Source: Planctomycetota bacterium (lineage in GTDB: Bacteria > Planctomycetota > Planctomycetia > JALXBF01). Taken from it: a stretch of DNA of 58,009 bases. The stretch is taken from the NCBI GenBank assembly GCA_026981825.1, contig JALSID010000227.1, positions 1 through 58,009 of the forward strand, given 5' to 3'. Below the pieces are notes generated by a model. That model was given only the letters and a program-made list of their open reading frames with translations, was not told where the DNA came from and did no database searches. Of the stretch, positions 48,501-54,500 are shown piece after piece. The number at the start of each line of letters is the position of its first letter. Position 1 is the first letter of the stretch. Position numbers and translations under genes: made by a program.

Positions 48501-51500
48501 AGGTGGTCCGCACCTGCCCGGCGCAACTCGTAGTTGGCCAGGTTCGTGACCGAGTGGTCCGGATCGTCGGTCCGCATGATCTCGTCGAACGTGATCACGA
48601 TGCTCGAGGGGGCCACATTCGTCCCCGAGCCGGGCACCATGTCGATGATGTGCGGCGGCGTCGTGTCCACCACGACCGTCAACGGTGGGAAGCGGTCCGG
48701 ATCAAGCCTCGAGTCGGTCACATTGCCGGCCCGGTCGATGAGCTGCCCGTGGATCACATGCGTGCCATCCGGCAGACTGACGGTGGCCGTCACGGACCAG
48801 GTCCCGATGCCGTCGCCGTCTGGATCGGTCACGACCGCGGTGCCGTCGTCATACTCACCGTCGCCGTCCACGTCGAGCATGATCTTCGGCAGCGGCTCGG
48901 GAACGTCGCCCGGCAGAGCGTTGACGTCCTCCTGAACAGAGGGGTTGCCTGGGAACGGATCGATTACCGTGCCGGAGAACTGCAGTACGGTTTCGCTTGT
49001 GCGGTTGTCCCCCGGCACGCCGGTGTCGTTGTCGAGCACGAAGCTGGTAACCTGAGCCGGCGACGTATCCACGTCGATGAAGATCGTCTTTTCTGTCCGG
49101 TTGCCGGTGGGATCCTGCAACCGCACCGTGATCGGGATAACTTTGCCGTCCTCAATGGTGACCGAGGGGTCGACCGCGATGGTGAACGACCCGTCAGGCT
49201 GGACGAACACACCCGGCACACCATCGAGGAAGTCTCCGTCACCATCGACTTCCAGGCTCACCGAGATGCCAGCCAGCGATTCCGGCAGGGGCTCGAGCAA
49301 CTGCCCAATGAAGGTGGGCCGATTGTTCTTGGTCCGCTCAACTCCCCCTTCCAGAGCCGAGGGCTCGTCGATCCCGGTGTCGTCCGCCGGATCAAGGCGG
49401 AACTCGAGGTTCATGGGCACTGTGAAGCTACCGGGGCCACCCGTGATCACGGGATTGTCGAACACGAAATCCTGATCATCGAGTTCACCATCGCCGGTGG
49501 GGAACCCAAACTGTGCCGGATACGGACCCGGACCGGGGAAGTCTCCATCCAGCAGGTTACCCGCCTCGTCCTGCAAGGCCCCAGGCGTCGGGCTGGTGGT
49601 CGCATCGATCGAGAACGTGTAGACCTCGGGCTGAATCAGAGCCGTGTTCAGGTCGATCAGGATCCGCCCGCCGGGTTGATTCGGGCCGGGAACCGTATCG
49701 TACGCAATGCGGCCAAGGACGATGGCAGACAGATCTCCACGAACGTTACCCGTCAAGGAATACAGATCGCGGTTGAACACACTGCCCACGTAGAACTCGT
49801 TCACCGCGGCCACGTCCGTCCGGCCGTCCCCGTCCCAATCGCCAAGGACGATCGCATCGCCAGGTGAACCGAACGGGCGTACCGGATCGTCATCCTGGCG
49901 GTTGTTGTTTTCGTCGAGGATGAACTCACCGAACGCCGGCGAGTAGACCCCCACGTCGTCTCCGGCGATCGGGTTGAACCGTCCCACGATCGGCAGGTCG
50001 GCCGCCTTACCGAAGGGGAACTGTGTTTCACCGGTGGTCGAATGGTCACCGTTGGTGTCCAGCAACCAGAGCAGCTCGTCTGCGGCCGGGTCCGGCGTGG
50101 CGATGCCTACCTCCGTGATCCCGTCGTTATTCCAGTCCCCGACCACAGGCATGTTGTTCGGATCGCCGGGTCCGAAGGTGAACACGAGCGGTGCAACGTC
50201 AAGGAAGCCGTCGCCGTCGAGGTCCTCCACGGGGTCGAGCACACCGTCGCCGTCGAGGTCCTCGTCGGGCGTCTCATCCCCGTCACCATCGACATCCAGG
50301 CGGAAGGTCGAGGTCGTCGGGTCATAGCTCCCGATAAGCGTTCGGCCCAGGCCAACCCAATCGCCCACAATCGGGATCTCGCCCACGTTGCCGAACGTGC
50401 GGATCACGGGGGACACGTCGAGGACGCCGTCCAGGTCCAGATCCTCACCGAAGTCGAGGACGCCGTTTCCGTTCGCGTCCTCACTGGGCGTCAGGTCGTG
50501 ATCGCCATCCTGGTCAAGCAACCAGAGGATCTTGCCGCTGCCGACGTCGAACCGAACCACGCCCAGTTCGGCCAGGCCATCGCCGTTGAAATCGCCGAGC
50601 AACGGCAGGTCGGTCGGCTGCGGATCGAGCCCTTCCCCTGGATCCACCACGCCGTTGCCGTTGGCGTCGGCGAAGAAACCGAACTGGAACGTCTCGCCCA
50701 CGTCGCGACTCAGATCGCCATTGAAGTCGACCGTCCACCGCGACCGTTCCGCGTCAAAGGACACGATCACGTCCTGGCCGGTCCCTGTGAAATCGCCGGC
50801 AAGACCGAGCGACATCGCCCGCCCGAGGTAGTCGGGCACGCCGTCACCGTCCGAATCGGTCTTCGGCCAGGCCCCCGGGGCTCCATAGAAGATGTCCCGC
50901 TCGCTCGTCTCCACAACAAAGTTGCCATTGAGGTCGATTGTCCAGTTCTTGCCGCGCGAAACGAGCAGCCGCTCACTGGCCCCCACCTCGATCTCGCGCA
51001 GCTCATCAAACGTTCCGATGTCGGTAACGCCGTCGCCATCCCAGTCCCCCACAACCGGAGGATCGGCTTCGGCGCCGAAGACGAACGCCGTGTCGTCAAA
51101 GGTGCGATTCGCGTTCAGATCGAGCACCCAGAGAGCCAGGAATTGATTGAAGGCCCCCACCTCATCCTTGCCGTCGCCGTTCCAATCGCCTATGACGGGG
51201 ATCGCCCCCAGCTCTCCGTACCGGAACTTCTCACTGTTCTCGAGCACATGGTTCTCGTTCAGGTCGAGGGCAAAGATCGCGTCGATGAGGCCGTTGCCGT
51301 CCACATCCTCGCCCGGATCGAGCAGTCCGTCGCCATCGCGATCCTCGCTGCCAAAGATTCCGATCTCAGCCAGCCCGTCGCCATCCCAGTCGCCGACCAC
51401 CGGCCGGTCACCGACGCTGCCGAAAGCAAAGGCGCCGTCGTCGGCTACGCGGTTACCGTTTGCGTCGACTACCCACACCAACTGACCCGTGTCAACGTCC

Positions 51501-54500
51501 GGGTAGGCTATGGCGATCTCGTCACCGGGCGTGGCCGGATCGAAGTCCCCCGCCAGCGGCGTACCACCGGGAGCTCCGAACTCGAACGGCAATTCGTTCG
51601 GCATGCGGTCACCGCCCAGATCCAACCGCCACAGGCCGGTGACTCGATCGTAGGTGCCGAGGTCGTCGTCGCCGTCACCATCCCAGTCGCCGATCACCGG
51701 GATCAGCCGCTGCCCGGTGCCAAAGGCATAGATCGGATCGTCGGGCTGCAGGTTGCCGTTCTCATCGAGCTGGAACTCACCGGTCTCGGGGTTGAACACG
51801 CCGATCTCGGTGGCACCATCGCCGTCCCAGTCGCCGGTGATGCCCATCCAGCCCGCTGCGCCGTAGAAGACCCTCGCATCGCCGGGACGGTCGTCAACCC
51901 GATTGCCGTTCGTGTCCAGCACCCATCCACCGGCACGTCGGACGCCAACGGGCGTCGTGGTAGTCAACCGTGGAGCAGCCCGGTCGACGACGATCGTCAG
52001 TGTCTGCGTCGACTGATTACCGGCCAGGTCCGTGACTCGCAGTTGGATATCGACCTCGCACGTGGAGAACTCGGGGCACAGGTCGAACAGCGGCTCGATG
52101 AAGAACGTGCCGTCGGCTGCCGTCACCACTCCGGCAGTGCCGTCATCGAAGTCGCCGATCGGATCGAGCTGCCCGTCGGCATCCAGGATCGGCAGCAACT
52201 CACCCGTACGCAGGTCCTGGATGCGGGTGATGTCGATCTCGACCGCCATGTTCTCGGTCGTGCCCGGGAACACGTCGGTCGCGATGCCGCGCAGCAGCGG
52301 CCGCGGCTGGTTCGTCTTGCTGTCGAGCTGCACGCCCGTGTCACTGGACTCGTCCAGCTCGAACGCTCGGATCACAGGGTCGTCCAAATCGACGGCGAAG
52401 GTCAGAACCTGCTCGGCCACAGGATTGCCGGCCAGATCGGTCAGGCCCTGGTTCGAGTGGATAATGAGGCGGTAGCGGTCGATGCGCAGCTCACCGCCAG
52501 ACAGCTCTCCCTGGGTCGGATCGCCAGAGCGCGGGTCGAGCACATTCAACGTCAGATAGCCAGGCTCGATGCCTGCCACGGACACGACGCGGATCCGCAC
52601 CTCGTTGCCGTCGTTGAAGATGTCGCCGTCCTGGTTCAGGTCTTCGGGCCCACCCGCTGCGATAATCTCGATCGTGGCCGGAAGCTCAGCGTTTTGGAAC
52701 GATCGGATCGCCTCCTGGCTCAAGTCACGGCCGAAGATGCGGAGCTCGTCAATGTAGCCGTCGAACGTCGGATAGACCCCCTCACGCCCGCCGACGATCA
52801 ACGGCTCATCGGTATCGGAGAGCCGCAGCGCGAGCTGGCCTTCGCGGTCGAGGTCGCCGTTGATGTAGATCCGCCAGGTACCGGGTTCATCCGTGGGCAA
52901 TGGCTGGCGATCGGGGTTGAAGGTGATCGTCAGTTGATACCACTCGTTTTGACTCAATGGCGTAGCGGACCGGATCTTCTGCGTGTCCTCACCCCCACTC
53001 AGGGCATGCGGCCGCATCTCGGTGACGGCTCCCGAGCCGTTCTGGCCCGGCGCCAGTTCGGCACGCACCAGGGTCGAGGCCACTGGATGCGAGTTCACGA
53101 GGTCGCGCACCTCCAGGGCAGTGGTCTCACCCGGATTGCGGAGCGTGATGGAGATCAACGCCTCACCACCTGTCAGAGGCTGAAGCGGCATGGGACGGAC
53201 GCGACCAAAGCCGGTGGGGTTCTCGGGCGCCAGAGCCGCGGTGATGATGCCGTTGGCCGGGCTCGTGGGGGCATTCCAGGCAGCGATCACCTGGGCGGCC
53301 GTGCTGATCGGCCGACCGGTCTCGTCGGTCGCCAGGTAGACGGTGAAGTGATCACCGCTGCGCACGATCCGCAGGGGCGAATTCGTCCCCTCGGCCACAA
53401 ACTGGATCCTGTAGTTGTTCCCTTCGATACCGGGCGTCACTGCGGTGAAGCGGATGTCGTTGTCGTCACCCGGGAAGGCGGTGGTCAACTGAGCCGCCTC
53501 CGTCGTCACGCTGAGCGACGGCGTTGGGTTGGGCGTGGTGGGAACAACGTACTGGATCCGGATCGAATTACCCGCGGCACCACGCTGCTGGGCGGTGAAG
53601 ACCAGATCGTTGTCCTGACCTTCGAGGTTCGTCTGCAACGTGGCGGCCCGGTGCCGGCCCACCGGGAAGACCTCGAACACCACGAAGTCACGATTGCCCC
53701 CTAACCGATCCGGATGACGCGGATCGTTCTCCAGATACAGCACCCAGCCACCGTCGAAGGTGCCGTCCTTGTGCTTGGCAAGGATGGGACGAATGTTGGG
53801 GTCGGGCCGCTGAGGCCGTGTGCCGAAGTCGCGCGGGTTGATCGTAACCTGGAGCGTGAACGATCCATCCAGCCGCTGCAGGTGGGTGGCGCCCAGCGGC
53901 ACGACAGCCCCGGTACCATCGTTGCCCGGAGCAAGCTCGGCAGTCACGACCGTGCCCGCCACGGCGTTGATCGCATCACGCACCGCCGCAGCCGTGTTCT
54001 GCGCCGGATCCAGGTTACCGTCCGCGTCGGTGGCCAGAAGCACCGTTACGCTGCTGCCATCCACCTGCACGCTGAGGGGGTTGTTCGGCGTACCAGGATC
54101 GCGGTACTCAATCGTGACATCGGCCCCCGCAGGACCGGGATCCACCGCGGTGAAGAGCAGATCGTTGTTTTCGCCGGGGATCCGCGCCCACAGTCTGGCC
54201 GGACCTGCCGCCAGATCCAGACTGCCGGTCGGGTCGTCTTCCACGGTGATGTATGCCTTGCCGCCGTCCAGGAATACGGGCGGCATCGGCCGCACCGGGT
54301 CAGAACCGTCCTCTCCCGGAGGCAAGGAGACCTCGATAAGTGCCGACGCGGCAGGATCGGCCTGCAGGGCGGCGAGCACGTCCGCAGCCGTGGACAGCAC
54401 CTGGCCGTTCGCGTCTGTTTCCAGGGTGACAACGATTGCCGAGCCGTTCACCGCAACGCTCAGCGGTGCCGGATGCGTATCGGAGAGTCGGTACTCCACG

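Follow-up and report, generated by a model that had tools for sequence, protein, structure and literature searches.

In bacterial RTX adhesins, split immunoglobulin-like (Ig-like) domains project ligand-binding domains off the axis of the stalk, and the hallmark of such an inserted domain is the adjacency of its N- and C-termini (PMC12077191, PMC10865825). In AhLap of Aeromonas hydrophila (PDB 9CSE) the chain exits after the first β-strand of the Ig-like domain and returns to finish the sandwich (PMC12077191); FrhA of Vibrio cholerae and MpIBP of Marinomonas primoryensis are further split-domain adhesins (PMC12077191, PMC10865825). Here, we analysed a 58,009-nucleotide stretch of planctomycete DNA (the window), an entire contig of a metagenome-assembled genome (MAG) that comprises 446 contigs and is 95% complete. 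A single open frame on the minus strand (45536..58009; all features below lie on this strand) encodes 4157 residues of a giant protein, whose N-terminus is lost where the contig end cuts the gene. Residues 2009-2850 of this frame (49460-51990) hold a block of FG-GAP-like repeats between two Ig-like pieces, and we consider it reasonably probable, from the sequence and its analysis, that these pieces belong to one Big_5-type Ig stalk domain that is split by a nested 716-residue propeller module.

The locus has in common with the RTX adhesins a long Ig-like stalk, C-terminal RTX repeats and, by prediction, an insert with adjacent N- and C-termini. Judging by sequence, the order of events along the chain may also be the same, the binding domain being predicted to emerge after the first Ig strand and the chain to return thereafter. 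Unlike in the RTX adhesins, the host domain is of the Big_5 type, the organism is a planctomycete and the insert measures ~716 residues (twelve blades, ~75 kDa), compared with 15-30 kDa for their CBM, PA14, vWFA or peptide-binding domains. The split-domain design as such is already known from these adhesins, and the present locus would be an unusually large example of it and no novel principle.

Repeats of the FG-GAP / VCBS type (PF13517) are calcium-binding propeller repeats found in integrin alpha subunits and in ITFG2. The block in the window follows the same FG...GDxDGDGxxD repeat logic, with four strands per blade and DxDxDG hairpin loops, but its repeats are ~47 residues long instead of ~60 and come in units of five and six instead of seven-bladed propellers. 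The UmbA proteins of Streptomyces umbrella toxins have lectin propellers of five and six blades; that of UmbA4 (PDB 9oee) is six-bladed, bears calcium loops and serves as a carbohydrate-binding targeting head (PMC13274773). The UmbA propellers are terminal and not nested in an Ig domain, and they share no sequence-level match with the block.

Results

The Ig-like pieces on either side of the repeat block

An earlier reading of this DNA from its letters alone (the original prediction) had placed the repeat block inside a single Ig-like domain. The peptides that it quoted all lie in the one minus-strand frame, namely DRAAPRLTTTTP at residue 2009 (window position 51985), GVRRAGGWVLDTNGN at residue 2022, GDWDGDGRTDVAAV at 2723, LYSLTGNVRGDLS at 2749, YTFSID at 2797 and LQDEAGNLLDGDF at 2812, and the block between the Ig-like pieces consists of twelve repeats (residues 2021-2729). 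An intact Ig copy, which begins with DVTGPRVTNLDP at residue 3493, follows later in the protein.

The C-side piece (49442..49801, residues 2737-2856; NEFYVGSVF...LYSLTG...YTFSID...LQDEAGNLLDGDF...DFVFDNPV) would supply strands (B)C-G of a Big_5-type sandwich. Its proposed resemblance to the later intact copies was borne out: a BLAST search within this one protein matched it to residues 3534-3609 (E = 3e-8) and 3179-3262 (E = 1e-7), and hhalign against the profile of the intact copies returned a probability of 97.8-98%. The ~110 residues of the piece correspond to two intact Big_5 copies over all but their N-terminal quarter; absent are the first ~40 residues of the domain, i.e. strand A, the A' loop, strand B and the loop that follows it. 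The intact copy that served as reference (47174..47533, residues 3493-3612) scores 33.3 bits with PF13205 (cut-off 23.6) over profile positions 1-100 of 105. A second, Big_5-like intact copy (48212..48667, residues 3115-3266) reaches 21.5 bits in its N-terminal part, below that cut-off, and matches the reference copy by BLAST with E = 4e-9. By way of the BLAST and hhalign matches to the intact copies, the C-side piece is transitively homologous to bona fide Big_5 members.

A candidate for the missing A strand lies on the other side of the block. The N-side piece DRAAPRLTTTTP (51950..51985, residues 2009-2020) directly follows the ...IVVD of the previous domain and directly precedes the propeller block. 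It reads P-R-L-T-x-x-T-P and ends in the proline that is conserved among Big_5 A strands, whose pattern is a proline, a basic residue, a hydrophobic residue, two variable positions, a hydrophobic residue or threonine, a further variable position and a proline; the corresponding strand is PRLTGVTP in an orthologous protein (described below) and PRITGVIP, PQILGVTP and PKVTSVTP in intact copies. In a MAFFT alignment with 15 intact Big_5 copies the N-side piece falls on their A strands, terminal proline included, a placement that is not independent evidence, as MAFFT anchors sequence ends. Likewise, the splitting of intact copies across the gap was not counted as evidence, because MAFFT stretches row ends.

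Aligning the spliced halves with the intact copy, a check proposed together with the original prediction, gave an hhalign alignment over template columns 2-123 (score 80.0, E = 2e-13). The C-side piece alone covered columns 42-112 (score 75.6), and a control in which it was preceded by its 18 contiguous upstream residues covered columns 42-123 (score 69.6). Thus, the alignment reaches template column 2 solely when the N-side piece is spliced on.

These observations can also be read in terms of beads on a string, where an Ig-like domain shortened at its N-terminus comes after the propeller and either folds with no A strand or recruits RTDVAAV or EFYVGSVF as edge strands, and DRAAPRLTTTTP is a leftover VDxxxP inter-domain linker of the preceding domain. 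A VDxxxP motif is indeed found at every domain junction of the protein, so that its presence alone is unspecific; the motif after the proline, however, is of the Big_5 kind (eight residues ending in proline) and not of the Big_13 kind seen at the other junctions, which read ...F.LD...DTG. The N-side piece brings a modest gain in hhalign score, from 69.6-75.6 to 80.0, its MAFFT placement among A strands is in part an end-anchoring artefact, and it was never paired with the C-side part by AlphaFold2 (AF2; see below). On the other hand, nothing in the C-side part corresponds to strand A, the two chain ends meet in velcro-closed propellers although a bead on a string has no need of this, and comparable proteins are known to contain split Ig domains (PMC12077191). 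We regard the string of beads as a serious competitor, but an unlikely one, and continue with the nested insertion as the preferred reading.

Conservation of the layout

A sister Planctomycetota MAG of another genus (G001, JALXBF01 contig 65) carries an ortholog of 8800 residues, and the window therefore holds the C-terminal 47% of the gene. The whole 842-residue unit (residues 2009-2850) is collinear in this ortholog at 72% identity and without stops. The C-side Ig piece by itself is 81% identical in G001 and 49% identical in P0156, a truncated metagenome protein from the Joint Genome Institute, which shows the same junction between the last blade and the Ig C-part. An assembly chimera or a frameshift artefact that joins unrelated pieces might be suspected in a MAG of 446 contigs with a gene cut by the contig end. 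We rejected it because the ortholog is collinear: an independent MAG of another genus carries the same unit, stop-free within an 8800-residue frame, which leaves such an artefact a vanishingly small chance.

Outside these sequences the searches returned little. P0156 was the sole match when 5.8 billion proteins were searched with the C-side piece, 400 sampled Planctomycetota genomes held no further example of the architecture, and a scan of species genomes found the G001 ortholog alone; two metagenome scans returned nothing, or unrelated repeat proteins such as a metallopeptidase (L017). Collinear twelve-repeat modules without Ig halves do occur elsewhere, for example in P0155 and as a second array of the G001 protein, which suggests that the twelve-repeat module is an older cassette that this lineage has placed inside a Big_5 domain. 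P0011 and its relatives were considered as carriers of the same architecture and rejected; a partial Big_5 match follows their array, but the array is embedded in a different domain.

Structure prediction and evidence against the split

AF2 was run on residues 1872-2865 with a 5-row alignment (run 1) and on residues 2003-2865 with 18 rows (run 2), comprising the ortholog, P0156 and 15 paralog rows that were trimmed to strands C-G, so that pairing of the A strand was not imposed. Deeper mixed alignments were unusable, as MAFFT misplaces the Ig rows once propeller-only rows are added. The models contain about four strands per repeat. Foldseek matched both of them to propeller proteins with a probability of 1.0, including UmbA4, ITFG2 (KICSTOR), DDB1 and SF3B3. 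UmbA4 was the top or a near-top match for both, at TM-scores of 0.2-0.3 on low-confidence models. DDB1 and SF3B3 carry several propellers per chain and gave long alignments of 750-1000 columns, but their propellers are seven-bladed, WD40-like and cytosolic, and are unrelated to the block in sequence and function. The Foldseek results support a propeller, probably several, and no more.

Several results weigh against a propeller nested in one Ig domain. The mean predicted local distance difference test (pLDDT) was 55.3 in run 1, with a predicted TM-score (pTM) of 0.38, and 56.7 (pTM 0.42) in run 2; in both, pLDDT was ~25 for the N strand and the three propeller strands that follow it, and mostly below 50 across the Ig C-part; the N strand was unpaired and the Ig C-part unfolded. 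The Foldseek TM-scores were low in general (~0.2). In the hhalign alignment of the spliced halves, strand B of the template is unaligned (a gap of 13 columns), and by sequence either RTDVAAV or EFYVGSVF could take its place. Pfam Big_5 (PF13205) matches neither the C-side piece nor the spliced construct at E ≤ 10, and FG-GAP_3 (PF13517) scores 23.9 bits on the window segment (E = 6.6e-5, six stretches), below its gathering cut-off of 26.9. In the searches described above, the architecture was found in two or three sequences only. Finally, unlike for the type I-secreted RTX adhesins, no type I secretion HlyD was found above cut-off in the genome (best TIGR01843 score 80.8 versus 208.65 bits; MAG 95% complete).

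We attribute the failure of the AF2 models to the shallow alignments and do not take it as evidence against the split. On balance, the sequence, the conserved layout and the precedent of the RTX adhesins support the insertion proposed in the original prediction, while its counterpart in structure, a single sandwich built from both Ig pieces, is absent from the AF2 models.

The twelve-repeat block

Cut at the GDWDGDG-type motifs, the block (residues 2021-2729) yields twelve repeats of 45-84 residues, typically ~47. A profile hidden Markov model (HMM) of the repeat units, with the consensus KDDIGVYRPSTGTWYLDNNGNGGWDDLTFQFGAPGDTPVVGDWDGDG, recovers 11 of the 12 at E-values of 1e-16 to 7e-3, and the same 47-residue repeat is present in 18,692 representative proteins at E ≤ 1e-3; on both grounds the repeats are far beyond chance. 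Pfam FG-GAP_3 captures this family weakly, though some homologs, such as P0004 (53.9 bits) and P0015 (35.5 bits), lie above its cut-off. In homologs the repeats are joined to proteases, dehydrogenases, PKD and TIG stalks and other domains. Searches of the PDB by sequence with the segment, the intact copy, the repeat profile and the Ig profile gave no meaningful match and no detectable solved structure.

Repeats 1-6 (51029..51949, residues 2021-2327) are 45-68 residues long each, with about four strands per repeat as assigned by DSSP in the AF2 models. Repeats 7-12 (49823..51028, residues 2328-2729) are 47-84 residues long, and pLDDT reaches 70-90 over residues 2403-2737 of model 2. Six repeats are compact (45-50 residues); the remainder contain Asp-rich DxDxDG-type inserts, as in repeat 5 (residues 2221-2243) and, with a calcium-loop-like appearance, in repeats 7-10, or, in the case of repeat 7, a linker of 21 residues. 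In sequence, canonical DxDxDG loops follow 7 of the 12 repeats (1, 2, 4, 5, 6, 8 and 12), a near-canonical one follows repeat 10 and degenerate ones follow repeats 3, 7, 9 and 11. The hairpin loops thus read as the DxDxDGxxD/E calcium-binding type and are predicted calcium sites, and the blades may bind calcium. The four strands per repeat, together with the Foldseek probability of 1.0, albeit at low TM-scores, agree with the FG-GAP_3 / VCBS picture of four-stranded blades arranged as a propeller.

The Asp-rich inserts are a feature in their own right. They lie at residues 2221-2243, 2380-2400, 2455-2470, 2500-2540 and 2575-2615 (within 49823-51349), with sequences such as SEDRDGDGLLDPGEDVDGNGLID and EDLDGDGVLDPVEDLDGDGFLD, and those of repeats 5 and 7-10 have a pLDDT below 50. 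Loop inserts of a like kind occur in P0155, in P0011 and in the second array of the G001 protein.

Arrangement of the blades

Does the block form two six-bladed propellers or one large ring? The original prediction had counted twelve repeats, as we did, and had named both possibilities. In homologs, the first strand of a standalone array is a B strand (DxIGxY) and the last one an A strand (GxW) that no calcium loop follows, as in classic velcro closure. The order from strand B to strand A is shared by all arrays of the family, and with it the adjacency of the N- and C-termini within one blade. The proposal that the block starts with a half-repeat and ends with the complementary half holds approximately; in the register of the family, the first unit of the block is a complete repeat that opens with strand B, and the block ends with twelve A strands and the extra B-like strand RTDVAAV. 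This peptide (49802..49822, residues 2730-2736) fits the B-strand positions of the repeat HMM and is predicted as a strand at model residues 730-734, and it is also length-aligned with TQIVVTF of the intact Ig copy. Its assignment on sequence is thus ambiguous: it may be the 13th B-type propeller strand, which closes the last blade, or Ig strand B.

Across the repeat family, array sizes peak at 5 (n = 138), 6 (n = 70), 10 (n = 64) and 12 (n = 10). The frequency of calcium loops falls to 0.07-0.08 after the last repeat of single units and is 0.28 after repeat 5 of 10-repeat arrays; in 12-repeat arrays it is 0.0 after repeats 6 and 12, and the median step from repeat 6 to repeat 7 is 81 residues. 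Because of this internal break at the midpoint, the double-size arrays are best read as tandem propellers. As a family-wide rule for the 47-residue GDWNGDG repeat, units would then have 5 or 6 repeats, and arrays of 10 and 12 would be tandem pairs.

In the window the ends of repeats 6 and 7 are 84 residues apart, compared with the family median of 81 at the same position after repeat 6, and both AF2 models drop in confidence at the midpoint of the block. Both features favour two six-bladed propellers, which we consider the most likely arrangement. Two findings fit it less well. Unlike in the 12-repeat arrays of the family, canonical calcium loops are kept after repeats 6 and 12, so the boundary between two halves is not marked in the usual way. 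The block contains 12 A, 13 B, 12 C and 12 D strands, with a B-like strand after the loops of both repeats 6 and 12; the count could be explained if each half had a 2+2 velcro. In addition, no similarity between repeats i and i+6 was found among the twelve, and we rejected a recent duplication of a six-blade unit for this reason.

The retained loops can be turned into an argument for a single twelve-bladed ring, still nested in the Ig domain. All junctions, the one from repeat 6 to repeat 7 included, keep a hairpin-type calcium loop, a loop-less GxW, the mark of propeller ends in the rest of the family, is not found at the end of any repeat, and the i to i+6 pattern expected of a duplicated six-blade unit is missing. 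Propellers in the PDB range from 4 to 12 blades (PMC6805158), so that a ring of this size has a precedent. Set against this are the clustering of family arrays at 5, 6, 10 and 12 repeats, in which the double sizes have a clear internal break, the long 84-residue spacing after repeat 6, the fall in AF2 confidence at the midpoint in both models, and the long Foldseek matches, which are chains of several propellers. We judge the single ring quite improbable. If it were true, a calcium-studded ring of twelve blades in an Ig domain of ~120 residues would stand at the upper size limit known for β-propellers, no other domain known to bud from a split Ig domain would come near it in size, and calcium loops kept at every junction would be the signature of a single ring. 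Family statistics thus favour two six-bladed propellers over the larger ring, and we describe the module as such below.

The giant protein, its genome and its relatives

The domains found with Pfam and NCBIfam in the giant frame, i.e. Big_13 (E = 2.5e-37), two Big_5, LamG, a BNR region and RTX repeats (E = 6e-33), identify it by sequence as a surface or adhesin-like protein, with an Ig-like stalk, LamG, BNR and propeller heads and C-terminal RTX repeats along its length (45536..58009). The RTX nonapeptide repeats (PF00353, E = 6e-33, seven stretches) occupy 45590..46147 (approximately residues 3955-4140); together with the Big_13 match they provide the combination of C-terminal RTX repeats and Ig-like extender stalk that is typical of RTX adhesins. 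The NCBIfam RTX-type matches were all under their cut-offs, and within the 58-kb window no HlyD, ABC or TolC genes of type I secretion adjoin the giant gene.

Three Big_13 stretches were found by Pfam, the best of which, at residues 3383-3493, is the one located. The stalk domain that precedes the N-side piece (51986..52387, residues 1875-2008; limits from the translation) ends in ...LTIVVD and is assigned as Big_13-like by its motif (DESSDTG...) alone.

The N-terminal half that is missing from the window can be viewed in the G001 ortholog (G001:C65, L014/L015). The protein begins with a basic planctomycete leader of the LEQLEERVLLA type, as is also found on the repeat-bearing homologs P0012 and P0029. 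Arrays lie at residues 2100-2830 and 3450-3710: a second twelve-repeat-like array is followed by classical FG-GAP/VCBS repeats, and a third, short array stands just before a BNR/sialidase-like region.

In P0156, the Big_5 domain after the split one (residues ~540-650) has an insert of ~100 residues of its own, between the strands YRVRIKDD and ...ANRIDGEH. This insert (NNDLTYTLAGRQAATIEYRHPG...VNVSLAAGNNGNG) resembles the repeated modules of ~108 residues at residues ~1140-1640 of the window protein, and insertion into Big_5 domains therefore seems to be recurrent in this protein family. In P0011, a distant giant protein, the array at residues 480-1240 seems to be nested in another β-rich domain, a possible split-domain host, with the flanks …NLFINVRFNT…VFGFIDIDVD… before the array and …FTVKVPLRFLSNDDGDLNIAATVGPF after it.

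Discussion

Taking the nested insertion as the preferred reading, we propose the following course of the chain. It would lay down the first Ig strand (PRLTTTTP) and then exit from the domain to build twelve FG-GAP-like, calcium-loop-bearing blades as a 716-residue module, probably folded as two six-bladed propellers. Because each propeller would be closed by a velcro blade, the points of chain entry and exit would lie close together, and the chain could come back to add the strands that the Ig sandwich still lacks, so that both Ig pieces would form one β-sandwich. The result would be a large, probably lectin-like and calcium-dependent head that is held sideways off a rod-like stalk, as in the split domains of RTX adhesins, and the module may serve as a lectin or adhesin binding head.

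That split Ig domains are the sites from which ligand-binding domains bud is a rule hitherto applied in the search for binding heads of proteobacterial RTX adhesins. If the split is real, this rule would extend outside the Proteobacteria and beyond the adhesins of type I secretion systems, with an insert that is three to five times larger than those reported so far. For the 47-residue repeat family, with its 18,692 representative proteins, the practical rule would be that blades come in units of five or six and that double-size arrays are tandem pairs. In the planctomycete itself, residues 2021-2736 are marked as the likely binding head of a surface protein of 8800 residues.

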